The notes beneath the pieces are model-generated. The model was given only the letters and a program-made list of their open reading frames with translations. It was not told the origin of the DNA and did not search any database. A stretch of DNA of 64,000 bases from Escherichia coli (GTDB lineage Bacteria; Pseudomonadota; Gammaproteobacteria; Enterobacterales; Enterobacteriaceae): assembly GCF_016903815.1 (NCBI RefSeq), contig NZ_CP069973.1, one strand, 5' to 3'. The translations under genes were made by a program, and so were the position numbers. Shown here in pieces: positions 5,164 through 54,998 of this stretch (position 1 is the first letter of the stretch; each line of letters starts with the position of its first letter).

Positions 5164-6588
5164 TTAATGTTTAACCATGACGTGGCGGACGACGGTGTAA
5201 TCCTCCAGCCCATAAAGTGACATATCCTTGCCGTAACCAGAAAGTTTCTGCCCACCGTGCGGCATTTCACTTACCAGCATGAAATGGGTATTGACCCAGG
5301 TACAACCATATTGCAGCCGCGCGCTGACGCGATGCGCCCTGCCCACATCTTTCGTCCATACCGAGGATGCAAGTCCATACTGGCTGTCATTTGCCCAGTT
5401 TACCACCTGTTCTTCATTGTCGAAGAGCGTAACACTCACTACTGGACCAAATACCTCTTTTTGCACGATGGCATCGTCCTGTAATGCGCCAGCCAGTAGC
5501 GTCGGCGCATAGTAATAGCCATTACCCTTGCGCTTTTCACCGCCAGTGATCACTTTGATGTGCCCTGTCGCTTTCGCCTCTTCTACCGCCTTGCTGACGC
5601 GTTCGAGATGCGCCAGCGAACTTAAAGGTCCAAGCTCCGTAGAGTCGTCATCCGGCGCACCCGATTTTAACGTTGCCACTGCAGCACCAAGTTTTTCCAC
5701 CAGCGTATCGTAAATGCCTTTTTGCGCATAGATCCGACAAGCCGCTGTACAATCCTGTCCGGCATTGTAATAGCCAAAAGTACGTACACCTTCGACCACC
5801 GCTTCAATATCCGCATCATCAAAAACTATCACTGGCGCTTTGCCACCAAGTTCCATATGAGTACGCTTTATGGACGGCGCGGTATGGCTGATGATGTGCT
5901 CGCCGGTGGCGATAGAGCCCGTCAGCGACACCATCCGCACTTTGGGATGACCGGTCAGCGGATCGCCCACCGTTTTGCCTCTGCCAAACAGTACGTTAAT
6001 CACGCCTGCCGGGAAGATATCTTTCGCCAGCTCTGCCAACTTCAACGCGGTCAGCGGGGTAATTTCTGATGGTTTAAGCACTACACAGTTCCCTGCCGCC
6101 AGCGCCGGAGCCAGTTTCCACGCGGCCATCATCAGCGGATAATTCCACGGTGCGATCGAAGCCACGACCCCCAACGGATCGCGACGGATCATCGAAGTAT
6201 GACCTTCAAGATATTCACCTGCCGCCAGACCATTCAGACAGCGCGCCGCACCAGCGAAAAAGCGAAAAACATCGACAATCGCCGGGATTTCATCATTGAA
6301 CGCACTATGCAGCGGTTTGCCACAATTACGGGACTCCAGTTCGGCAAAAACCTGACCATTTTCTTCGATAACATCAGCCAGTTTCAGCAGACATTCCGCA
6401 CGCACTTTCGGCGTGGTTTGCCCCCATTCGGCAAATGCTGCATCTGCCGCGCGCACAGCAGCATCGACCTGCTCTGCGGATGCCTCGGCAATCTCCAGTA
6501 AAACGTCCCCCGTTGCCGGATTATAGACAGGCTGTTTTTCCCCTTCGCCGCTAACCAGTTCTCCGTTAATCAGTAACTTATGTTGCAT
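5164..6588 (-). CDS. patD: Gamma-aminobutyraldehyde dehydrogenase (aldehyde dehydrogenase family)
   Basis: 474 aa; ALDH catalytic motifs (ELGGK, GQDCTAA); first gene downstream of ydcSTUV. Confidence 0.92.
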
Positions 6589-6609
6589 AGCATATTCCTG
6601 TATCAGTGG

Positions 6610-7404
6610 TTATTGACCATTGTCGCCTTCGCGGGTTAGCCACCAGGCCCCCAGGATCGGCAAGGTTGTTACCAACATAACCAGCAGTGCCACCACGTTG
6701 GTTACCGGTACATCACGCGGTCGCCCAAGCTGATTGAGCAACCACAACGGTAACGTTCGTTCATGACCTGCCGTAAAGGTCGTCACGATGATTTCATCGA
6801 ACGACAAGGCAAACGCCAGCATTCCTCCTGCCAGTAACGCCGAACTGAGATTCGGCAACACTACGTAGCGGAAGGTTTGCCAGCCATTGGCCCCAAGATC
6901 CATTGACGCCTCAACCAGACTCCACGAGGTGCGGCGAAAACGGGCGATGACATTGTTAAACACCACAACTACACAAAAAGTCGCATGACCGACCACGATG
7001 GTGAAAAATCCCGGCTCCAGATTGATGGTTTTAAAGGCGGTTAACAACGCCAGACCAGTGACAATGCCCGGCAGCGCAATGGGCAGCAGCAGTAACAGCG
7101 AAATGGCGTTTTTGCCGAAAAAGTCTCGTCGCCACAGCGCGGCAGCGGCCAGCGTCCCTAACACCAGCGCCATTAATGTCGCCAGCGCCGCCACTTTAAG
7201 TGACAGTGTCACGGCATCAAGAATATCACTACGCTGTGCTGCCACGCTAAACCAGCGCAGCGTCAGGCCCTGCGGTGGAAAACTAAACGCCGCATCTTCA
7301 GTGTTAAACGCATAGGCGGCGATAATCAGGATGGGAAAATGTAGGAAAACCACGCCGCCCCAGGCCGCCAGTTTGAGGAAAAACGGTGCGCGTTCAGAGT
7401 GCAT
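6610..7404 (-). CDS. ydcV: ABC transporter permease YdcV
   Basis: 264 aa, multiple TM segments, PotC-like; synteny. Confidence 0.9.
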
Positions 7405-8335
7405 CGAACGCTCCCAGACGTTTCACGAACGCCAGGTACAGTGCGATGAGAACAATCGGCACCAGGGTGAATGCCGCCGCCATCGGCATATTGCCAATCG
7501 CTCCCTGCTGGGAATAAACCATATTGCCGATAAAATATCCTGGAGGGCCAACCAGCTGCGGAACAATAAAATCGCCCAGTGTGAGTGAAAAGGTAAAGAT
7601 AGAGCCAGCGGCAATACCAGGGATTGCCAGCGGCAGCACCACATAGCGAAAGGTTTGCCGTGGACGCGCGCCAAGATCAGCCGACGCCTGCAACAATGAC
7701 GGCGGCAAACGCTCAAGCGCCGCCTGCACGGGCAGGATCATGAACGGCAGCCAGATATAGAGAAACACCAGAAAGCGCCCCAGCCCGGAAGTTGACAGCG
7801 TATTGCCGCCCACCGCAGGTAATGTAAGGAACGCAGTCAGCAGTGGTTCCAGCCCAAGATGTTGTAAAAACCACTGAGCCACGCCATCTTTTGCCAGCAA
7901 TAACGTCCAGGCATAGGCTTTAACAATGTAGCTCGCCCACATCGGCAACATTACCGCAATATAAAAAAACGCTTTCATTTTCCCGCTGGTATAGCGCGCC
8001 ATATACCACGCCATTGGAAAAGCCAGAATGGCGCTGGCGATAGTGACTGCCACAGCCATAGTCAGCGTGCGGAGAATGATGTCGTAATTCGCCGGATTAA
8101 ACAGCGCACGGATATTCGCCAGCGTCAGTTCCGGCGTTACCGACATGGTGAAATCGTCAAAGGTATAAAATCCCTGCCATAACAGTGTCAGCAGCGAGCC
8201 GAAATAGACAATGCCAAACCACATTAGCGGGCCAAGCAGCAGTAAAAACAGCCCCAGCCCCGGATTACGCCAGAAGAAACCGGACACCTTACCCAGACCT
8301 GGACGTGAAGGTGATTGCAATACATTCATCGCCAT
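7394..8335 (-). CDS. ydcU: ABC transporter permease YdcU
   Basis: 313 aa, PotB-like permease; overlaps ydcV start. Confidence 0.9.
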
Positions 8336-9349
8336 TCACCTCTCCTCAACCAGCGGCACCATCACATCACGCGACCAGGAAACCATCACCTGTTGTCCGG
8401 GCGTGAGCGTGGCAGGCAGTTCTTCGCCTGTCATATTGGCCTGACTCACAAGCAGTTTTTCACCGCCGTTCAATTTCAGTTCAAAACGAGTTGCCGCGCC
8501 CTGATATTGCACCGCCTGGATCGTGCCATTGGCCTGCAGTTCACCAGGGGTGTTGAGGCGGATATGTTCCGGTCGCAGGGCGAAGCTTCCCGTCATGCCA
8601 CAAAGTTTCTCTGCCATCAGTCCATCAAAAACATTCGATGTACCAACGAACCCGGCAACAAACGGCGTGCGCGGGCGCATATAGAGATCGCGCGGGGAAT
8701 CGACCTGCTCAATGCGTCCATTATTGAAAACCGCAACACGATCGGACATCGATAACGCTTCGCCCTGATCGTGGGTAACGAAGATAAAAGTGATACCGAG
8801 AGACTGTTGCAGCTTTTTCAGTTCCAGTTGCATCTGCTCACGCAATTTGAGATCCAGTGCGCCGAGCGGTTCATCCAACAGCAATACGCGCGGTTCATTC
8901 ACCAATGCTCTGGCGATAGCAACCCGCTGGCGCTGACCACCAGAAAGTTGTGACGGTTTACGTTGCTGTACAAACCCCAACGCCACTTTCTCCAGCGCCT
9001 CTTGCGCCATTGCGTGCCGCTGCTTTTTATTCACGCCTTTGACCATCAGCCCATAGGCGACATTGTCAAGAATCGACATATGCGGAAATAGCGCGTAGTC
9101 CTGGAAGACAGTATTCACGTCCCGCTCCCACGGTGGCAGATTGCTGGCGGGTTTACCAAAGATAGAGATAGCCCCGCCGGAAAGCTTTTCGAAGCCAGCA
9201 ATCAGGCGCAGGCAGGTGGTTTTGCCGGAGCCGGACGGCCCCAGCATAGAGAAGAACTCACCATCTTTTATCGCAATACTGACGCCATCTACTGCGCGCA
9301 CGTCACCGTACAACCGCGAGACGTTGTCAAACTCCACTGCGTACGTCAT
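8336..9349 (-). CDS. ydcT: ABC transporter ATP-binding protein YdcT
   Basis: 337 aa; Walker A GPSGSGKTT, ABC signature LSGGQRQR, Walker B LLLDEP. Confidence 0.9.
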   Translation of the reverse strand: MTYAVEFDNVSRLYGDVRAVDGVSIAIKDGEFFSMLGPSGSGKTTCLRLIAGFEKLSGGAISIFGKPASNLPPWERDVNTVFQDYALFPHMSILDNVAYGLMVKGVNKKQRHAMAQEALEKVALGFVQQRKPSQLSGGQRQRVAIARALVNEPRVLLLDEPLGALDLKLREQMQLELKKLQQSLGITFIFVTHDQGEALSMSDRVAVFNNGRIEQVDSPRDLYMRPRTPFVAGFVGTSNVFDGLMAEKLCGMTGSFALRPEHIRLNTPGELQANGTIQAVQYQGAATRFELKLNGGEKLLVSQANMTGEELPATLTPGQQVMVSWSRDVMVPLVEER

Positions 9350-9366
9350 AAAACACCCCAGCGAAG

Positions 9367-10512
9367 TTAGCGACCGCCCATAATGGCAATGTAATCCTGC
9401 GTCCAGCGACTGTAGGGAACAAACTTGCCCCCTTCTGCTATAGGTGTTTTCCAGAAGGCGATTTTATCGAAATAGTTAAAACCGTTGGTTTCACAACCTT
9501 TTTTGCCTAATAACGGACTGGCTTTACACCCTTCCGGCACTACCGGTAACGAGCCAAACCAGGCCGCCACATCGCCCTGCACTTTTGGCGTTAATGACCA
9601 GTTCATCCATTTGTAGGCGCAAACCGGATGTTTCGCTTCACTATGTAGCATGGTGGTGTCAGCCCAACCGGTAACGCCCTCTTTCGGGAATACGGTCGCG
9701 ACAGGCTGGCCTTCGGCTTTCAGGGCGTTGGCCTGATAGGGCCATGCACTGGAAGCAACCACACCCTCGTTTTTGAAATCGCTCATTTGTACGGTAGTGT
9801 CATGCCAGTAGCGATGGATCAAACTATGTTGATCGCGCAGCACTTTCAGCACCGCCTGGTACTGTTCTTCGGTGAGTTGATACGGATCGCTGATGCCCAA
9901 CTGAGGCTGAGTGGCTTTAACGAACAACGCAGCGTCCGCAATGTAGATAGGGCCATCATAAGCCTGAACGCGGCCTTTATTGCTCTTGCCGTCCGGCAGA
10001 TTCTGCTCAACAAAAACCACTTGCCAGCTATCCGGCGGCGTCGGGAAGGTTTTAGTGTTGTACATCAACAGGTTCGGACCCCATTGGTAAGGTGTGCCAT
10101 AAACTTTGCCACTAACGTTAAACCAGTCGCCTTTAACCACGCGCGGATCGAGCGTTTTCCAGTTGGGAATCAATGAGGTATTAATCGGCTGCACGCGTTT
10201 GCCCATAATCAGGCGCAGCGAGGCATCGCCGGATGCCGTAACCAGATCGTAACCCCCTTTGGTCATCAGACTGACCATTTCATCGGAAGTCGCGGCGGTT
10301 TTCACATTCACCGCGCAGCCAGTCTCTTTTTCGAATTGCGTTACCCAGTCGTATTGTTTATCAGTTTGTCCGCGTTCGATGTATCCCGGCCAGGCGATAA
10401 TATCCAGTCGCCCTTCCGGTTTATCTAAATTGGTAGGTGGTTCGGCGGCGTGAGCGGTCATTATTGTCATGGTGAGCGCACACAGGCTGCTGCGGGCAAA
10501 TGTCTTGCTCAT
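9367..10512 (-). CDS. ydcS: Periplasmic polyamine-type substrate-binding protein YdcS
   Basis: 381 aa with N-terminal signal peptide; PotD/PotF-like. Confidence 0.9.
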   Translation of the reverse strand: MSKTFARSSLCALTMTIMTAHAAEPPTNLDKPEGRLDIIAWPGYIERGQTDKQYDWVTQFEKETGCAVNVKTAATSDEMVSLMTKGGYDLVTASGDASLRLIMGKRVQPINTSLIPNWKTLDPRVVKGDWFNVSGKVYGTPYQWGPNLLMYNTKTFPTPPDSWQVVFVEQNLPDGKSNKGRVQAYDGPIYIADAALFVKATQPQLGISDPYQLTEEQYQAVLKVLRDQHSLIHRYWHDTTVQMSDFKNEGVVASSAWPYQANALKAEGQPVATVFPKEGVTGWADTTMLHSEAKHPVCAYKWMNWSLTPKVQGDVAAWFGSLPVVPEGCKASPLLGKKGCETNGFNYFDKIAFWKTPIAEGGKFVPYSRWTQDYIAIMGGR

Positions 10513-10756
10513 AAAGTCTTACTCCTGTCGTAATTAATTGTTCAGCCGCCGTGCCGTAAAAATATCTCCTTGTTTAACCATAGACGGCGGCTTGCAGGCA
10601 CACCTTCGCCCCTGAGAAAATTTAATCAGGTTGTGAGCTACCGCGCATTATGCCGTCTGTAAGGTTATCTTCTGGAGTATAGACAAGGAGTTAGGAAATA
10701 TGACTGCTATTCGAAATTCATATTACCCAACCTGAGAGGAATTTAATTAAACGCTA

Positions 10757-12163
10757 TTACAGCCGTTCTTGAATAAGTTTGCCTAATTGTTTAACCGCCT
10801 GTTCTTCACGTTCTCCCCACTGCCACGCGGTATTAAAACGGAAAAAACGTGACCAGTTTTCACCGGTAGAAAACATTTTACCCGGCGCAATACTGATATG
10901 ATGCGCCAGTGCCGCCAGGCTTAATTCGCCCGCATCTAACGGTTCGGGAAGCTCCAGCCAGAGAAAATAACCGCTGTCATTATGATGAATTTTCACTTCC
11001 GCAGGCAGATAACGCAGCAGTGCTTGCCAGGCACGTTGTTTACGTTCCGCAAGCTGGCGACGCAGGCGACGAAGATGGGCGTCGTATCGGCGCGTGGAAA
11101 GGTAATCCACCAGAGCAAGTTGCATCGGTGAGCTGGTGGAAAGCGTACTCATCAACTGCAAGCGTTGAATTTTACGTGCATGTTTTCCGGCGGCGACCCA
11201 ACCAATACGAAAACCAGGCACCAGACATTTCGAAAACGAAGAGCAATGCAAAACACCATCGTGGTGATCCCACGCTTTCGCAGGCAGCGGTTTTTCCCGT
11301 CCAAAATAAAGTTCGCTGTAAACGTCATCTTCAATCAGCGTTACGTTGTACTGACTGAGCAACGCTACCAGCCGCGCTTTTTTCTGCGGCGTTAAGGTAA
11401 ATCCGAGTGGATTCTGGCTATTAGTCATCAGCCAGCACGCTTTCACCGGATACTCCTGCAACGCCAGTTCCATCGCCTTGAGATCAATCCCTTCTTTAAC
11501 GTCCGTCGCCACCGATAACGCCTTCAGCCGTAACCGCTCCAGCGCCTGCAACGCGCCGTAGAAACAAGGATTCTCTACTATCACCCAATCGCCCGGTTCA
11601 GTGACCGCTTGTAAACTGAGGTTTAATGCCTCTAACGCCCCGGCGGTAATGACAATTTCATCAGGAGAAATAGTGATGCCCTGTAAGGCATAGCGACGAG
11701 CAATAGCCTGACGCAGTTCTGCGTTTCCTGGCGGTAAGTTTTCAATCACGCTCATCGCCGTGGCGGTTTTGCTTACCTGCGCCAGCGAGCGGTTGAGTTG
11801 TTGGAGGGGGAAAAGTCGCGGGTCGGGAAAGGCCGAGGCAAACGGAACTACCGACGGATCGCGACTGGCCTGCAACATATCAAAAATATAGGTGTTGATA
11901 TCGACTGCTTCATCTCGAGTGACTGGAATGACTGGCGCTTTCGGCATTTTTATTGCCTGTGTCGCAACGTAATAACCCGACTGCGGTCGCGCGATAATAT
12001 GTCCCTGACTTTCGAGCAACTGATAGGCATGGCTCACGGTCATAAAGCTCATGCCAGAAAGCGCCACCTGGTCACGCAACGAAGGCAAACGATCTCCGGG
12101 TTGCCAGATACCCGACGCAATCTGCTCGCGTAATTGTTCTGCAAGCTGCTGGTATTTTTTCAT
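10757..12163 (-). CDS. ydcR: MocR-type regulator (GntR HTH fused to aminotransferase-like domain) YdcR
   Basis: 468 aa; N-terminal wHTH plus PLP-fold domain with SFSKCL lysine motif. Confidence 0.9.
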   Translation of the reverse strand: MKKYQQLAEQLREQIASGIWQPGDRLPSLRDQVALSGMSFMTVSHAYQLLESQGHIIARPQSGYYVATQAIKMPKAPVIPVTRDEAVDINTYIFDMLQASRDPSVVPFASAFPDPRLFPLQQLNRSLAQVSKTATAMSVIENLPPGNAELRQAIARRYALQGITISPDEIVITAGALEALNLSLQAVTEPGDWVIVENPCFYGALQALERLRLKALSVATDVKEGIDLKAMELALQEYPVKACWLMTNSQNPLGFTLTPQKKARLVALLSQYNVTLIEDDVYSELYFGREKPLPAKAWDHHDGVLHCSSFSKCLVPGFRIGWVAAGKHARKIQRLQLMSTLSTSSPMQLALVDYLSTRRYDAHLRRLRRQLAERKQRAWQALLRYLPAEVKIHHNDSGYFLWLELPEPLDAGELSLAALAHHISIAPGKMFSTGENWSRFFRFNTAWQWGEREEQAVKQLGKLIQERL

Positions 12164-12241
12164 TATCGAATCGTAATTATGTGCAGATGATTCGGCAGTC
12201 TATATCAGTTGTTAAAAATGACAACTTTTCGTTAACTGTAA

Positions 12242-12658
<417 letters not shown>

Positions 12659-48516: not shown

Positions 48517-51500
48517 TTAGAACGTTTTCTTGAAGTTCAGCATCACGCCTTTATCGCTGATGCCGTCCTCTTTCCAGTGGTAAGCATCCAGATTCAGCGA
48601 ACTTTCTTTGCTGCTGTACTTCACGCCGACGCTTGCCAGGCTGTTGATGCCGCCGCCCTTCTGACCGTCATCGACATTAAAGTGCTGACTGCCTGCGCCT
48701 GCCAGGCTTGCCGTACGCTGGCTCTTCGCGTAGCTCAGGTTCGGCCCGCCTTCCAGCGTAGCGCTAGCGCTCCAGCCGTCTTTACCTGCGTAATCCAGTT
48801 TCAACCCGACGATGCTGTCCACCGCCGTTTCGCTGCCACTGTTCATATTCAGGTTAAAGTCTCCGGCATTGCGCTCTTGATAGCCACCTTCCAGTGTGTG
48901 ACGCAGTTTAACACCCGCATATGGCGTAACCTTCAGTCCTTCGCTCGGTTCGAAAGTCTTCGCCCCTTCGCTGCGGAACTCCAGGTACTGCTGCTTCACG
49001 TCGGTATCAGCCGTTTTGTTTGTGTTGCTAAATGCAATCGAACGGCTGCTGTCAAGGTTGTGAACGTCATAACGCAATGCGTTATTCCAGTTCATGCCGT
49101 TGTCGAAGGACATCTGATGTTTCAGGCCAAAGAACTGGCTATAACCGCCTGTAACGCCATTATCACCCGCTTTCTGCGCACCGTCGCCATCGAGGCGCGC
49201 GATACCGTACTCCAGACTCATCGTCTGGCTTTCGCTCAGGTCGATGGTTTTACGCAATGCCAGCATGTCGTACTCGGTATTGTTCCCCAGCTCCGCGCGC
49301 GGATCGCCTTTCGCAACAACGTTGAACGCCAGACCGTTACCCACTTTCGGTGCGGCATCCGCCAGCATGCTAAAGCGGTTGCTTAGCACGCGCGCTTCGC
49401 GGAATACCGTGGTCGCCTGGCTACCGCTGACCTGTTTCAGGGCACTGTTCAGTTCGGCAGTCGTGCCAACGTTCAGGCTGGTATACAGCTCGTTGTTGGT
49501 GTAACCCGCATCCAGTGCTTTCGCGACGTCATTCACCGAAGCATCGGTCGCCACATCGGTATAAGCATTTTTGCTCATAGTGACGTCAACGTTACCGTTG
49601 GCATCGGTGCTGCCTTTGGCGTTCCATACCACGGTCGTTGAGGTGATAGCATCCGCGTCGGTCAGGTTGCTGCCCTCCACCACGTTATCAAAACTAACGG
49701 TGGTGTCTGCCGTACCGGCGGTAAACCCGGTGTTGATCCCTACGCCGTTCATGCTGGCATTGTTGACCTTGAGCTTACCGGCGCTGCCATCGGCACTCGT
49801 ACCCACCACGTAACCGTTGAGATTGTTCATGCCGCCATCAGTTGCATCACTTCCCGGCGTTACGCTAACCGTATTGGGACTCGGCACATCCGGCAATGTA
49901 TAGTCGCCATAATGCACTTCCGTGTTATTACCGTTGTTACCGTTCACGCCTTCAACATTAATGCTGTCACCCTGCTTGATCAGGCCAGAACCCGTAACCC
50001 CATCGGCGATCACCACCGTGCCGTTGTTAACCACGTGACCTTCTGTACCCAGCACGCTGAATGCAAACGAGTCATTGGCGAAGATATTGATGGTGCCGTT
50101 GTTCTCGATCACCGCATCCGCCGTGGCGTTGGCATCGAGTTGCATACCGATCATGCCCGTATCGGTAGTGCCCTCTGTGCCGAGGTTGATGGTGCCGTTG
50201 TTAACCAGTTGCGCGTTCTTATCACCTTCCATAGCCACAGCACCGGTACCGCTGATATTCATAGTGCCGTCATTCTGCGCGATGAAGTTACTGTGGGTTA
50301 ATTTCACAGCGCTGGCGCTGTCGTGGTCAAAGTTGATGACCCCGTTATCCTGGTTCCAGAAGAAAGCATTCTGATCCCCAGCATTACTGGCGCTAACCAC
50401 CAGCGACTTAGCAGAGACATCAATCGTTCCATCGTTGATAAAGCGACCATTCCCACCCCACATATTGACAGCACCGTTGTGGGAGGAATTACTGATGTCC
50501 ATGTGACCAGTGTTATAAAGCGTACCGGACTGATTAATATGTACAGCATTCTTGTTGTTATCGAGGATAAACTCACCGCTGTTATTGAAGACGGCGTTGT
50601 TATTAACTTCCAGCATACCTGCGTTATTGCCGCCACTGCTACTACCGAGGCGCCAGGTTCCTTCGTTATTGACCCAGGCATCACCGGTTAATGCAGAACC
50701 ATTGTCCACTTTGCCATCTTGTAAGTTATTAAAGATGCCACTGGTCTGAATAATACGTTTACTCACTGTACCACTGTTATTAAAGACGCCGGATTTTTGC
50801 ACAACATTGCTAATAGTACCGGAGTTGTTCACCAGATTAGTGCTAGCCCCAGCATACATTGTCACATTACCGTTGATGGTACCCTCATTATTGAGGGTAC
50901 CTCCCTGAGCATCAATATTGCCCATCGAACCCGCATTATCTATTACAGCATCTGGTGCCAATTTCACCAGGGTGTTAATAATGCCCGTGGAGGTATTTTC
51001 GAGCGTACCGCTTTGAACGTTGATATTGCTACCAGATACCGTTCCTGCATTAATCGTGCTTCCTGGCGTTGCATCAGTTATCAGGACTGGGTTAATGAAG
51101 TTTGTCGACTCTCCTTCAGCCACCAGAATATCACCCCCGGTGTACTGTACTGACACATAACTATCAGTCGGGTTATATTGTTCCGGGCTCTGACAAATGC
51201 CAAAAGAACAGATTGTGCCATAGTTAACGATCGTCCCCGTTCCATCGCCGTAAAATGCCTGGCCGATGTCAGTATCGATATTAATAACGCCCGTTACGTC
51301 ATTAATTGCTGTACCACTACGGATAGCTCCCATCGCGAACAACTGACCTTCATGTTGCTGCGTCAGTCCCTCATCTGAGAGCAGATTTATTTCGCCCTGG
51401 TTGATGACCGTGCCACCCTCCATCGCCAGCATGCCAAAGCCCTGGTTCTTAACATTAATAATCCCAGTATTGACTATATCGGCATCGCCATGACCCGCAT

Positions 51501-54500
51501 CGGTCGAACCCGCTAACGCGCCGCCAGCCATCAGGAAGTAAGCGTTAAAATCCCAATAGGCTTCATCAGTAATATCACCATTTTCATCTACTGAAGGAAT
51601 AAAACCATCAACATTGATCACACCTGCGTTAGTCGCAGTACCACGAGAAGCGGCAACACCATAGACCCCAGGACCATGAATATTAATTGTTGCGCCGGAC
51701 TCATTCGTCACATCACCGTAATTGCTGGCTAACAGCGCAAAGTTGGTGCCGTGATACCATACAACAGGGAACTCATACGAACCGGAGGAACCCGTTGGTA
51801 CTGTTGTTGATACCAGATTAATAATACCACCAGCCCCATTGACTGCACGAGAGCCCTCATCTATAGCGCGCATAACGCCAGCTCTTGCGTACGCTTCAGT
51901 GCCAGGTTTCACGTTAATGGTGCCCGTATTTTTTATCTCTGCACCAGCACGCGCCATCATCAAGTCCTGCGCATCGGTAGTATTGATAATGCCGTGGTTT
52001 TCTATTTCAGAGCCGATACCCGTTGCGGTAATTAGGGCATCATCCAGATACCAATTGGTATCTCTCGCCCTGACGTCAAAATCAGTGACTGAATTTTCAT
52101 CAAAAATGGCATGTCCGCCATCCGCTACGCTCACTAATGTGAAGGCTCCTCTGACTTGCCGCGAGTTCATTTGTGAATGACCACTGATATTCATCACGTT
52201 GTTTCCGGTAACAGAAACTCCCTTGATTGAATGACCACCGCTATCACCAGTGATATTTATACCGCCCTCTAAATTGATTGTGTTATTTTCACCTGTAACA
52301 TCCACTCCAACCAGCACAGCTTGGTCATTCAAATAGCCAGAACCAACATTGATATTAATGTTACCACTCAAATCGACCGTATTGTTATCACCGCCAACGG
52401 ATAACCCAGTTAAACTATCCCCAGATATTGTCGGAGAGTCTCCCATAAGGGATACAAGATTGATATTACCATCCAATGAGATATGACTATCGTCCCCGGA
52501 CATATCAACGCCGGTTCCTCCTACAAAAACCCCATTACTGTCACGTTGCTGAGTTACATTAATATCCCCGCTCAAACTGACGTCTTCACGGTCGCCTGAA
52601 ATCGCTGCTCCCTGGCCATCAAGTGAAACATTGATTTCCCCAGTAGACTTAAATACTGCATCATCACCTTCAATAATAATGCCTACAGAGTTAGCATCTT
52701 CTACCGTGATTTTACCAGTATTACCGAGTGTAACCCGGTCACCACTGATATCAATACCACGTCCGGCATCACTAACAAAAAGGTCACCTTTCTGACTTAC
52801 TTTTCCGCCATTCCCGGTAACAAGTGTCCCAACGGAATCACCATCAACGACCATCGAACCCGTAATTTCGAGATTGTTATTATCGCCAGATACAATAACC
52901 CCCGCTGACTGTTCACCGATAACATTCAGCGCATATGTTGACATCGTCAGGGTATTATTGTCACCGGTGATTTCTAGTCCGGTCGAAAAACCACCGGTTT
53001 CAACAAGCCCGGCAAGGGCGATACTGGAATTATCACCAACAATTTTAATTGCAGTTGCCGCATTTTGCGCACTCACATCGCCCACGTTAATTAACGTTGA
53101 GCCATCACCCTCGATGAGTACGCCGATTGCGTTTTCACTGGCTGAGCCATCACTGACGCTGATGTCCCCCATATTGATGAATGCGCTATCGTTACCGTCC
53201 AACAATATACCAATGGATTTTTCATCAACTACGGTAATATTACCTTTATTGCTGATAATGGTACTATTACCAGTGACATCAATACCCTTCGCACCACCGC
53301 TGACAAAGAGGTCACCCTCTTGTTTCACCAGTGCATCATTACCATTAATTTTCGAGCCAGTCGAATTTTCACCATCAACGTTCATTGTACCTTTATTATC
53401 GACTTTGGCGTCATCGCCATTAATCAGACTACCGGTACCGCCATTGGTGAATGTCGAATCACCTGCGACATTCAATGTCGTACGATCGCCATTGACAATA
53501 ACGGCCGTCCCACCATCAACTTCCGTCTCACCATTATTAGTAATGGTGATATCATCACCGGTAAGAATACCTACCACCGAACCTTCACCAATCGCGGTAG
53601 TTTTGCCGTCGTTGTTCAGGGTGATGTCGTTACCGTCAACGTTTATCACAACGCCGCCATTCAGGGCGATGTTGCCGCCATGGTCGGTAATAGTGGCATC
53701 GTTAATATGGAAATGTTCGCCAGTTGTACCGTCTGCGGTGGTGAGTGACTCTATGATTATTTCGATTTTTCCCGCTTCGTCATAGCGCCAGGTGGAGGTT
53801 CCGCCAGGATTGACGCCATTGAACGAAGCCGTGTTAGCAGCCTCGTCGACTAACCAATCCTTCACGATTGTGGTAGTGCCGCCAGGTCCGGTAAGCGTAT
53901 AGCTGCCATCGTCATTTTTGGCGTAGGTAAAGGTGGTATCACGTAATTTTAGGGTCTTCGCGTCCTGATCCCAGGTGACATCGTTTTTATAGACCACAGG
54001 ATCGTGTTTGACTGGCGTGTCATCGCCACCGTCGTCCGGGGTATCATCGCCGCCATCATCTGGCGTGTCACCGCCGTCGTCTGGCGGGACTGGTGTATCG
54101 CCGCCATCATCCGGCGGGACGGGTGTATCGCCGCCATCATCCGGCGGGACAGGTGTGTCGCCGCCATCATCTGGCGGGACGGGTGTATCACCGCCATCAT
54201 CCGGCGGGACGGGTGTATCGCCGCCATCGTCCGGCGGGACTGGCGTGTCACCGCCATCATCCGGCGGGACGGGTGTATCACCGCCATCATCCGGCACCGG
54301 AGACGGATCGTCATGATGATTATTATTATCGTGGAGTGCATATACTGCGACGCCTGTGACTGCCGCTGCCAACCCCACTGCAGCCCAGGGTAATAACTCA
54401 TTATCTTCAACTGATTTACACTCTGCCGGCAGCTTTTCTAGCTGTTCTTTACTTAGTGATTTAATATTAGCCGGGCAGCTAATCTTGCTGGATTTACGAG

Positions 54501-54597
54501 ATTCATCCGATGTTTCCGCTATCGACGTATCTGCCGCCCATGTCTGACTGCTTAACGCCATTGCAACACAGACACTGAGCAATTTTTTCCTTTGCAT
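48517..54597 (-). CDS. ydbA: Large AIDA-I-type autotransporter YdbA, uninterrupted 2026 aa
   Basis: Signal peptide MQRKKLLSVCVAMALSSQTWA; long Gly/Asn/Thr-rich beta-helix-like passenger; C-terminal barrel ending ...VMLNFKKTF. Confidence 0.85.
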   Translation of the reverse strand: MQRKKLLSVCVAMALSSQTWAADTSIAETSDESRKSSKISCPANIKSLSKEQLEKLPAECKSVEDNELLPWAAVGLAAAVTGVAVYALHDNNNHHDDPSPVPDDGGDTPVPPDDGGDTPVPPDDGGDTPVPPDDGGDTPVPPDDGGDTPVPPDDGGDTPVPPDDGGDTPVPPDDGGDTPDDGGDDTPDDGGDDTPVKHDPVVYKNDVTWDQDAKTLKLRDTTFTYAKNDDGSYTLTGPGGTTTIVKDWLVDEAANTASFNGVNPGGTSTWRYDEAGKIEIIIESLTTADGTTGEHFHINDATITDHGGNIALNGGVVINVDGNDITLNNDGKTTAIGEGSVVGILTGDDITITNNGETEVDGGTAVIVNGDRTTLNVAGDSTFTNGGTGSLINGDDAKVDNKGTMNVDGENSTGSKINGNDALVKQEGDLFVSGGAKGIDVTGNSTIISNKGNITVVDEKSIGILLDGNDSAFINMGDISVSDGSASENAIGVLIEGDGSTLINVGDVSAQNAATAIKIVGDNSSIALAGLVETGGFSTGLEITGDNNTLTMSTYALNVIGEQSAGVIVSGDNNNLEITGSMVVDGDSVGTLVTGNGGKVSQKGDLFVSDAGRGIDISGDRVTLGNTGKITVEDANSVGIIIEGDDAVFKSTGEINVSLDGQGAAISGDREDVSLSGDINVTQQRDSNGVFVGGTGVDMSGDDSHISLDGNINLVSLMGDSPTISGDSLTGLSVGGDNNTVDLSGNININVGSGYLNDQAVLVGVDVTGENNTINLEGGINITGDSGGHSIKGVSVTGNNVMNISGHSQMNSRQVRGAFTLVSVADGGHAIFDENSVTDFDVRARDTNWYLDDALITATGIGSEIENHGIINTTDAQDLMMARAGAEIKNTGTINVKPGTEAYARAGVMRAIDEGSRAVNGAGGIINLVSTTVPTGSSGSYEFPVVWYHGTNFALLASNYGDVTNESGATINIHGPGVYGVAASRGTATNAGVINVDGFIPSVDENGDITDEAYWDFNAYFLMAGGALAGSTDAGHGDADIVNTGIINVKNQGFGMLAMEGGTVINQGEINLLSDEGLTQQHEGQLFAMGAIRSGTAINDVTGVINIDTDIGQAFYGDGTGTIVNYGTICSFGICQSPEQYNPTDSYVSVQYTGGDILVAEGESTNFINPVLITDATPGSTINAGTVSGSNINVQSGTLENTSTGIINTLVKLAPDAVIDNAGSMGNIDAQGGTLNNEGTINGNVTMYAGASTNLVNNSGTISNVVQKSGVFNNSGTVSKRIIQTSGIFNNLQDGKVDNGSALTGDAWVNNEGTWRLGSSSGGNNAGMLEVNNNAVFNNSGEFILDNNKNAVHINQSGTLYNTGHMDISNSSHNGAVNMWGGNGRFINDGTIDVSAKSLVVSASNAGDQNAFFWNQDNGVINFDHDSASAVKLTHSNFIAQNDGTMNISGTGAVAMEGDKNAQLVNNGTINLGTEGTTDTGMIGMQLDANATADAVIENNGTINIFANDSFAFSVLGTEGHVVNNGTVVIADGVTGSGLIKQGDSINVEGVNGNNGNNTEVHYGDYTLPDVPSPNTVSVTPGSDATDGGMNNLNGYVVGTSADGSAGKLKVNNASMNGVGINTGFTAGTADTTVSFDNVVEGSNLTDADAITSTTVVWNAKGSTDANGNVDVTMSKNAYTDVATDASVNDVAKALDAGYTNNELYTSLNVGTTAELNSALKQVSGSQATTVFREARVLSNRFSMLADAAPKVGNGLAFNVVAKGDPRAELGNNTEYDMLALRKTIDLSESQTMSLEYGIARLDGDGAQKAGDNGVTGGYSQFFGLKHQMSFDNGMNWNNALRYDVHNLDSSRSIAFSNTNKTADTDVKQQYLEFRSEGAKTFEPSEGLKVTPYAGVKLRHTLEGGYQERNAGDFNLNMNSGSETAVDSIVGLKLDYAGKDGWSASATLEGGPNLSYAKSQRTASLAGAGSQHFNVDDGQKGGGINSLASVGVKYSSKESSLNLDAYHWKEDGISDKGVMLNFKKTF
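54031..54298 (-). repeat. About eight tandem copies of a 30-bp unit encoding PVPPDDGGDT near the ydbA N-terminus
   Basis: Direct repeats of ggtgtatcgccgccatcatccggcgggacg with minor variants visible in sequence. Confidence 0.75.
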
Positions 54598-54998
54598 ATG
54601 AAATTCCTCATAAATAGATGATTACGCAGCCCAGATAAACTGCACAGGGTTAAATAGTTACAAATATTCGAAATCTGGATATTGTTTTTAACAGAATAAA
54701 TATATTGATTTAGCGAATATATTTATTCATTAAGTCAATGCATCTTTTCTTTAATTTATATTTTTAACGCATTTATTTCAACTTAAAATATGGCGCAATT
54801 GAGATTGAATCCGATAACACCGATGAATTAAATAATGCAATTAATTCATGAAATAAATAAATTATCATGTGAATGAAGCATTCATCATCGGCATCTATAT
54901 GAAATTAAATGAAAAATAATTCTCAATAGCATTGCAGTTAATATTGAATATTTCAGGAGGTACAACCAGGGAGATTTTTTTCGACGAATACCGACTTA

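Follow-up and report, generated by a model that had tools for sequence, protein, structure and literature searches.

Gene identity, locus and intactness

The DNA analyzed here is a 64,000-nucleotide stretch from Escherichia coli (contig NZ_CP069973.1; hereafter the window), which carries the gene ydbA on its minus strand as a single open reading frame (ORF) of 2026 amino acids plus a stop codon, at positions 48517–54597, with an ATG start and no internal stops. This gene is an intact minority allele of ydbA, and its product is a large autotransporter of the classical type (type Va), belonging to the BigA/YdbA family. An earlier reading of the window from its sequence alone (the sequence-only reading) had proposed such an uninterrupted ORF, and the proposal is borne out by the ORF itself, by synteny and by a perfect match elsewhere: all 6081 bp are 100% identical to the annotated gene of E. 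coli strain 222 (WP_021517098.1). In strain 222, ydbH-ynbE-ydbL lie upstream of ydbA and pdxI (ydbC)-ydbD-ynbABCD downstream, and the chromosomal position upstream of the latter genes is matched by the annotated context in both strain 222 and K-12. About 89 independent complete genomes also carry the 751-bp 5' region unchanged in both sequence and length. These two findings, the perfect match in strain 222 and the shared 5' region, exclude an assembly artefact. At the corresponding position, K-12 is annotated with two pseudogene halves (ydbA_1 and ydbA_2) with IS2 and IS30 between them, just as the sequence-only reading had stated.

Parts of the gene were matched in 2531 of 5426 complete E. 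coli genomes, and at least 80% of it in 94 of the 5426; the window allele is therefore a minority one. K-12 and most other E. coli match only the last third, at about 92% identity or less; the passenger is thus diverged and mosaic, a pattern common among surface proteins. The names of the roughly 89 genomes with the identical 5' region (several '405', one O102:H6) suggest that they form one clonal group. The gene, its family domains and its variable-number tandem repeat (VNTR) are already present in databases and in the literature, and this is not a new kind of system. Against the NCBIfam model auto_BigA (NF033178), the window protein scored 1385.9 bits, below the curated cut-off of 3400 bits; it is therefore a YdbA-type relative, for which the name BigA is not appropriate.

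Protein architecture

The features of the gene and its upstream region are collected in Table 1. Of the three-part layout claimed in the sequence-only reading (signal peptide, beta-helix-like passenger and C-terminal barrel), the signal peptide is supported by the signal-peptide rule and the barrel by Pfam family PF03797; a beta-helical passenger is probable from an AlphaFold2 (AF2) model of residues 281–347.

Table 1. Features of ydbA and its upstream region in the window (aa, amino acids)
Feature	Residues (aa)	Position	Strand	Description and evidence
Signal peptide	1–21	54535..54597	-	MQRKK (n-region), LLSVCVAMAL (h-region), SSQTWA (c-region); T at -3, A at -1
Loop between two conserved cysteines	41–60	54418..54477	-	CPANIKSLSKEQLEKLPAEC; family alignment
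Gly/Ala-rich hydrophobic segment	68–88	54334..54396	-	LLPWAAVGLAAAVTGVAVYAL; sequence, family alignment
His/Asn/Asp-rich junction	89–97	54307..54333	-	HDNNNHHDD; similar N/D/H/G-rich junction in homologs
Tandem array	100–178	54064..54300	-	one 27-bp unit (PVPDDGGDT) and seven 30-bp units (PVPPDDGGDT)
Degenerate array end	179–194	54016..54063	-	two 24-bp units (PDDGGDDT x2)
BigA_N small beta-barrel domain	201–280	53758..53997	-	PF25784, E 1.6e-25; AF2 confidence (pLDDT) above 90
Repetitive passenger, probably beta-helix type	281–1594	49816..53757	-	AF2 of aa 281–347 only; annotation-pipeline names of orthologs; Pfam records of homologs
BigA_beta sandwich domain at passenger base	1595–1678	49564..49815	-	PF25783, E 2.2e-25
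Predicted linker alpha-helix just before barrel	1726–1748	49354..49422	-	AF2 helix 150–172 of the C-terminal model
Autotransporter beta-barrel, ~12 strands	about 1757–2026	48520..49329	-	PF03797, AF2, Foldseek
AT-rich ydbL-ydbA intergenic region		54598..54998	-	27.5% GC vs 44–58% in flanking genes

The Sec signal peptide MQRKKLLSVCVAMALSSQTWA (followed by AD), read from the sequence by rule, satisfies the n-h-c layout and the -3/-1 rule, and this layout is conserved across the family alignment; cleavage is predicted after A21. The hydrophobic segment begins 46 residues past this predicted site. Residues 22–200 are covered by no Pfam model, whereas the matches to BigA_N and BigA_beta both far exceed their Pfam cut-offs. 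In an AF2 model of residues 1–347, BigA_N and the first beta-helix rungs were well modeled, the repeats had a pLDDT (predicted local distance difference test) of about 50–57, and the cysteine loop formed two short helices with a pLDDT of about 70. Residues 281–347, the only portion of the passenger that was modeled, showed regular short strands (pLDDT about 90). A Foldseek search of the PDB with this N-terminal model gave no match (best E 0.29). For the rest of the passenger, some orthologs are named 'pectate lyase-fold domain-containing protein' by the NCBI Prokaryotic Genome Annotation Pipeline (PGAP), and matches to BigA_3rd and BigA_4th are recorded in Pfam for homologs.

The barrel domain PF03797 was not detected in a Pfam scan of the whole protein; when the last 327 residues were scanned alone, it was found with an E value of 1.2e-19 (71.6 bits vs a cut-off of 26). 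AF2 of the last 450 residues (mean pLDDT 82) predicted a long helix followed by about 12 long strands, and the best PDB matches of this model in Foldseek were the translocators AaaA, EstA, EspP, NalP, BrkA and Hbp (E 4e-10 to 3e-5), with a TM-score of 0.72 against NalP (1uyn), normalized to the length of NalP. A sequence search of PDB chains with the C-terminal 527 residues gave nothing meaningful. The protein ends in GVMLNFKKTF, that is, in a terminal aromatic residue (beta-signal), and homologs end in F or FR. Its 2026 residues contain five cysteines: C10 in the signal peptide, C41 and C60 at the loop, and one C-x4-C pair at 1130 and 1135. The last pair is in keeping with autotransporter passengers, which are known to have few, closely spaced cysteines.

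The repeat array and its variation

Tandem Repeats Finder reported a 30-bp unit repeated 7.6 times at 54068–54295 (88% matches, score 351), a 90-bp super-period repeated 2.6 times over the same array, and a 24-bp unit repeated 2.7 times at 54012–54076. The encoded peptide, residues 100–194, reads PVPDDGGDT, then seven times PVPPDDGGDT and twice PDDGGDDT. About eight full units were thus found, as the sequence-only reading had stated for a 30-bp tandem repeat near the N-terminus. Between the seven 30-bp units, all 74 of the 74 pairwise nucleotide differences lie at third codon positions and are synonymous, and the repeat peptide is therefore under purifying selection. These synonymous interruptions also shorten the perfect repeats.

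Copy number was compared across strains and found to vary in both E. coli and E. albertii. Among E. coli sharing this N-terminal allele, as sampled from fetched loci and database fragments, it ranges from about 3 to 19 units: ~3 in UTME-7, ~8 in one '405' assembly, ~9 each in Nord122 and LHM10-1, 10 in the window (degenerate units counted), ~12 each in VE-T9, wlxctx60 and ET201, and ~19 in G8. In all of these variants the frame is kept across the array, and the ORFs are full-length except in wlxctx60, which has an unrelated internal stop. In one E. albertii cluster (90% identity), every full-length member listed is exactly 1769+9n amino acids long, with n = 3, 6, 7, 12, 14, 15 or 16 copies of VTPPDDGGN. 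Inside the clone of the window, the length was identical in 47 of the 50 listed full-coverage rows of the search with the 5' region. The variability that the sequence-only reading expected therefore stands between strains but not within this clone, where the array is nearly invariant, and it was already known as STTR3.

STTR3 is one of the five loci of the standard multiple-locus VNTR analysis of S. Typhimurium; it has 27- and 33-bp units and has been described as relatively stable (PMC5183578). Five reference strains have 10–12 copies, and the 27-bp unit printed in the same report translates to DGGNVTPPD, which is the peptide theme of the window array (PMC3391293). The window array has the same place, between the hydrophobic region and BigA_N, and the same PPDDGG(D/N)xT theme as STTR3-type VNTRs, and in a bigA locus linked to cysG a 33-bp unit is repeated 4.3 times at the same place within the gene. 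The array corresponds in E. coli to STTR3 of Salmonella bigA, and its near-invariance in the clone of the window fits the relative stability reported for STTR3.

Salmonella BigA resembles the window protein in further respects: it has BigA_N, BigA_beta and an autotransporter barrel, the same order of N-terminal parts (in S. diarizonae and at the cysG-linked locus) and a DGG(N/D)xTPPD repeat theme whose copy number varies between strains. It differs in its locus, which in the cysG-linked case lies at cysG-yhfL rather than between ydbL and pdxI, in its units of 27 and 33 bp as against 30 and 24 bp, and in a diverged passenger. K-12 YdbA shares with the window protein its locus and downstream genes, about 92% DNA identity over the last third and the order of N-terminal parts; however, its spacer is Pro/Asp-rich and non-repetitive with no PPDDGGD units, and the internal repeats of its passenger, about 95 amino acids each, are different. 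Over its first 340 residues, the window protein shares about 41% identity with the representative allele nearest to K-12 in the N-terminus. Short Pro-rich tandem repeats of strain-variable number also occur in the passenger of pertactin, where they lie inside the beta-helix region rather than beside a hydrophobic segment.

With its tandem repeat close to the 5' end, a surface-protein gene such as ydbA might be taken to carry an on/off phase-variation (contingency) switch, and one metagenome-derived database product is indeed frameshifted inside the array, which reflects either a sequencing error or rare out-of-frame slippage. However, the unit lengths of the window (27, 30 and 24 bp) and of Salmonella (27 and 33 bp) are all multiples of three, so that the array changes the length of the protein, never its reading frame, and is no on/off switch. 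The frame was kept in every length variant examined, and the perfect repeats are broken up by the synonymous interruptions. We consider a switch of this kind extremely improbable.

Several other observations concern the array or the gene that carries it. In the loci of ET201 (6554–12409) and G8 (6554–12499), PGAP splits ydbA at the array into two partial pseudogene pieces; translated from the start codon, both are uninterrupted ORFs, of 1951 and 1981 amino acids. Long arrays thus seem to break homology-based annotation. The window-type allele gave 6 'places' per genome record in the BLAST tables, which are most likely off-register alignments inside the array rather than extra gene copies, and a few matches to ydbA (6–7 'places') were on records classed as plasmids. 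In one E. coli protein, the first ~200 residues of YdbA (signal peptide, cysteine loop, hydrophobic segment, five repeats and the start of BigA_N) are joined to a methyltransferase domain; its apparent origin is a deletion that brought ydbA into fusion with a ynbC-like gene lying downstream. In Salmonella, bigA deletions of 293–408 bp were reported in biocide-selected mutants along with high fitness costs (PMC4943003); these may fall within the STTR3 array or be artefacts of mapping reads to its repeats.

An N-terminal module conserved across the family

The breadth of the region preceding BigA_N was assessed by an exhaustive search of 1.84 billion representative proteins and by a scan of species-representative genomes (55 loci). 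A word-indexed search with the N-terminal 315 residues returned only 14 short fragments, which served as examples of copy number and not of family breadth. Across Enterobacterales, the module has a fixed order of parts: signal peptide, cysteine-bounded loop, a few acidic residues, hydrophobic segment, Asn/Asp/His/Gly-rich junction, acidic spacer and BigA_N. This order was the same in 21 aligned diverse homologs, in which C41, P42, C60 and G75 are invariant and A78 nearly so. The cysteine loop has 20 residues in nearly all members (consensus CPxNIxxLSxEQxxKLPxxC), and the hydrophobic segment, of about 19–21 residues, is Gly/Ala-rich and often starts with WxW. Most full-length genes from the genome scan carry the module, which occurs in Escherichia, Salmonella, Citrobacter, Pseudocitrobacter, Enterobacter, Lelliottia, Superficieibacter, Mangrovibacter, Cedecea, Rahnella, Chimaeribacter and Pantoea. 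The sequence-only reading had called a hydrophobic stretch behind the signal peptide unusual; this is so for autotransporters in general, but within the BigA/YdbA family, K-12 YdbA included, the stretch is conserved throughout.

The repeat units of the spacer differ by lineage (PPDDGGD, PDPT, PPxPP, DNGG, GGENP, TPD, GGGGDT and even poly-Asp). In all homologs the spacer is acidic or Gly/Pro-rich and nearly free of Lys and Arg (K/R), with a minimum length of ~15 residues. Its physical character is conserved, but not its sequence. The 40 residues after the hydrophobic segment contain 0–1 K/R and, in most members, 7–14 Asp or Glu. The passengers of the family are about 1000–2100 residues long, and the mean column identity of the barrel across genera is 75%. 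We found no description of the N-terminal module in the searchable literature; it is a conserved, undescribed and modest topological puzzle.

Some species have 3–5 family paralogs per genome (Trabulsiella odontotermitis, Mangrovibacter yixingensis and Citrobacter amalonaticus), several of them at contig ends and with differing types of spacer repeat, such as GGENP vs TPD in C. amalonaticus. In addition, short contigs in metagenome-assembled genomes of Collinsella, Bacillota and Oscillospiraceae encode autotransporter C-termini 96%, 96% and 77% identical to the window protein; these contigs are almost certainly enterobacterial DNA contaminating the bins.

Proposed topology and mechanism

The explanation that accounts best for these data, and which we consider probable as a whole, is that ydbA encodes a type Va autotransporter whose hydrophobic segment is exported and forms a distal tip on a variable tether. 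Judging from the family, the signal peptide would take the protein through Sec, and the C-terminal barrel of ~12 strands would be inserted in the outer membrane with the linker helix inside its pore. The passenger of ~1700 residues would then be threaded out C-terminus first and fold into a long beta-helix. Since passengers emerge in this direction, the N-terminal module would exit last and end up as the distal tip, tethered by a spacer of a length set by the VNTR. Slippage or unequal recombination in the 30-bp array would alter the length of the encoded spacer in frame, each unit adding an estimated ~3 nm if the chain is extended, and selection would maintain the composition of the spacer peptide. 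The hydrophobic segment, on this account, would cross the inner membrane rather than stop there and, outside the cell, may serve as a self-associating or membrane-inserting tip. Three roles for it are live options: self-association, insertion into a target membrane, and a transient inner-membrane tether during secretion.

A signal peptide followed by a 21-residue hydrophobic segment would by default suggest that the segment is a true stop-transfer helix (the window segment has a Kyte-Doolittle mean of 1.77 over 19 residues) and the protein a type I protein of the inner membrane, with its bulk in the cytoplasm and no working autotransporter. Such a stop would strand 1900 residues, including the barrel, in the cytoplasm, and the conservation of the barrel argues otherwise: the barrel, the linker helix and the terminal Phe are strongly conserved across genera, which would be senseless for a cytoplasmic domain. 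In addition, the ORF has been kept open across many lineages, and in nearly all members the flank downstream of the segment is acidic and almost free of K/R. By the positive-inside rule this is the opposite of a cytoplasmic flank and is consistent with export, as is the Ala/Gly richness of the segment. No topology other than export is compatible with an outer-membrane barrel at the C-terminus, and the segment is most likely carried across the inner membrane; we regard a stop-transfer helix as highly improbable.

The cysteine-bounded loop bears on the next step, passage through the outer membrane. For the autotransporter Pet, disulfide loops of more than 20 residues are stated to block secretion (Leyton 2011, as cited in PMC10269718). 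The 20-residue loop of the module lies within this limit and is consistent with secretion. Since the loop is exactly at the reported limit, one could also picture the loop and the segment as a stopper that stays in the periplasm, with the spacer threaded through the outer membrane and the passenger displayed as a loop held at both ends; a non-folding spacer that carries no positive charge and has at least ~15 residues in all homologs would suit this arrangement. However, the loop is at the limit and not above it, the 12-stranded barrel is already occupied by the linker helix, and artificially stalled autotransporters stay stuck on the beta-barrel assembly machinery (BAM). A periplasmic stopper is in our judgment very improbable.

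A more serious, though still unlikely, alternative is that the segment only paces secretion, as a transient inner-membrane tether with no activity at the surface. After cleavage of the signal peptide, it would linger at the periplasmic face of the inner membrane or at the lateral gate of SecY, holding the N-terminus until the barrel is assembled, and folding of the passenger outside the cell would then pull it out, a pacing like that proposed for extended signal peptides. The position of the segment speaks for this possibility, since in every family member it comes right behind the signal-peptide region and ahead of a non-folding acidic spacer, and so do the very large passengers of the family and the marginal hydrophobicity and Ala/Gly richness, as expected of an extractable segment. 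Neisseria NalP, a further point in its favor, carries an N-terminal lipid anchor and thus, like the window protein, a hydrophobic anchor at the N-terminus of its passenger, and it has the similar barrel noted above. The barrel of BigA has been grouped with NalP-type barrels, and its passenger assigned to an AIDA-like beta-helix (PMC3419190). Unlike NalP and lipoprotein autotransporters, the window protein has no lipobox (the sequence LSVC has Val at -1, and its Cys lies inside the h-region), and the passenger of NalP is a protease. A transient tether would also leave the conserved cysteine-bounded loop and the invariant Gly unexplained, there is no extended signal-peptide region of a known type, a helix with both flanks in the periplasm would be an unusual state, and the support is not direct.

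An exported segment at the tip of the passenger finds an analogy in H. pylori VacA, whose N-terminal stretch of 32 uncharged residues carries three GXXXG motifs, travels through Sec and type V secretion and afterwards enters membranes (PMC4926140). Like the window segment, this region is uncharged, Gly/Ala-rich and hydrophobic and lies near the N-terminus of an autotransporter passenger; it differs in standing at the very mature N-terminus, rather than 46 residues in and behind a cysteine-bounded loop. By eye only, we saw no sequence likeness between the two. The analogy is one of mechanism and not of membership. The tandem GXXXG pattern of VacA was not found in the window segment, which has three small-xxx-small pairs, no triple zipper and no GXXXG proper. 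Many BigA/YdbA homologs have 3–5 zipper triples, and most have repeated small-xxx-small motifs. In TonB, a hydrophobic helix is likewise followed by a Pro-rich spacer, but this helix is an N-in signal anchor with no cleavable signal peptide before it. VacA, NalP and TonB are functional analogies only.

A stronger version of the exported tip is doubtful, though worth stating. The family might share an N-terminal device made of the cysteine loop, presumably closed by a disulfide, and a Gly/Ala-zipper helix, placed at the tip of a beta-helical stalk of ~30 nm (a rough estimate) on the acidic variable tether, and the helix might insert into a target membrane or bundle with the helices of its neighbors. 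If this were true, BigA/YdbA proteins would be membrane-harpooning or self-clustering adhesins rather than plain adhesins, and the VNTR would tune their reach.

Several points weigh against an exported, functional tip. The family segments have Kyte-Doolittle values of 1.4–2.1 over 19 residues, around or above the classical transmembrane threshold of 1.6. A crude insertion-energy sum on the Hessa scale gave +0.4 to +3.7 kcal/mol for these segments and +2.5 for the genuine TonB anchor, and does not discriminate between them. The AF2 model shows no helix and no docking partner for the segment (pLDDT 31–42). The K/R-free run of the window protein is only mildly unusual, with P about 1e-3 for a pre-chosen stretch, and the protein, with 5% K+R overall, has other K/R-free runs of 106–118 residues; because the depletion is weak evidence in a single protein, the argument rests on its recurrence across the family. 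On the side of expression, the upstream region has 27.5% GC, and silence under laboratory conditions is common among related autotransporter genes of E. coli. Finally, no ligand or adhesion function of YdbA or BigA has been shown in the searchable literature.

Upstream region and neighboring genes

The AT-rich intergenic region between ydbL and ydbA presumably holds the promoter. It contains a single weak sigma-70-like match at 54781–54753 and a 12-bp AT-rich tandem repeat at 54823–54860, and its AT-richness may mark a promoter region silenced by an H-NS-type mechanism.

In the window, ydbL is directly adjacent to ydbA across this 400-bp region and the fea/tynA/paa block is absent, whereas in K-12 ydbA has the paa cluster as its immediate upstream neighbor (of which paaK, paaX and paaY are visible). 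We considered a functional link of ydbA with ydbH-ynbE-ydbL, YdbH being TamB/AsmA-like. It was rejected because K-12 has other genes upstream, including the paa cluster, and because the neighbors are unrelated at the homologous loci of Enterobacter and [Enterobacter] lignolyticus and at the cysG-linked locus. On the downstream side, ynbB (phosphatidate cytidylyltransferase; 43407–44303, minus strand) contains two in-frame stops, in agreement with the 'internal stop' pseudogene note in strain 222. This neighbor is thus broken in the window while ydbA is intact.

Implications

The ydbA pseudogene of K-12 corresponds to a full-length autotransporter gene in wild E. coli, which is already on record in RefSeq. 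Its array varies between E. coli lineages and is stable within a clone, and it could therefore serve as a slow typing marker; the same array trips automatic annotation, which splits intact genes there. The N-terminal module, found family-wide, is a clear and cheap experimental target. It poses the question of how a transmembrane-like helix that follows a cleavable signal peptide is exported, and it may reveal the role of the tip in a large family of adhesins so far without an assigned function.

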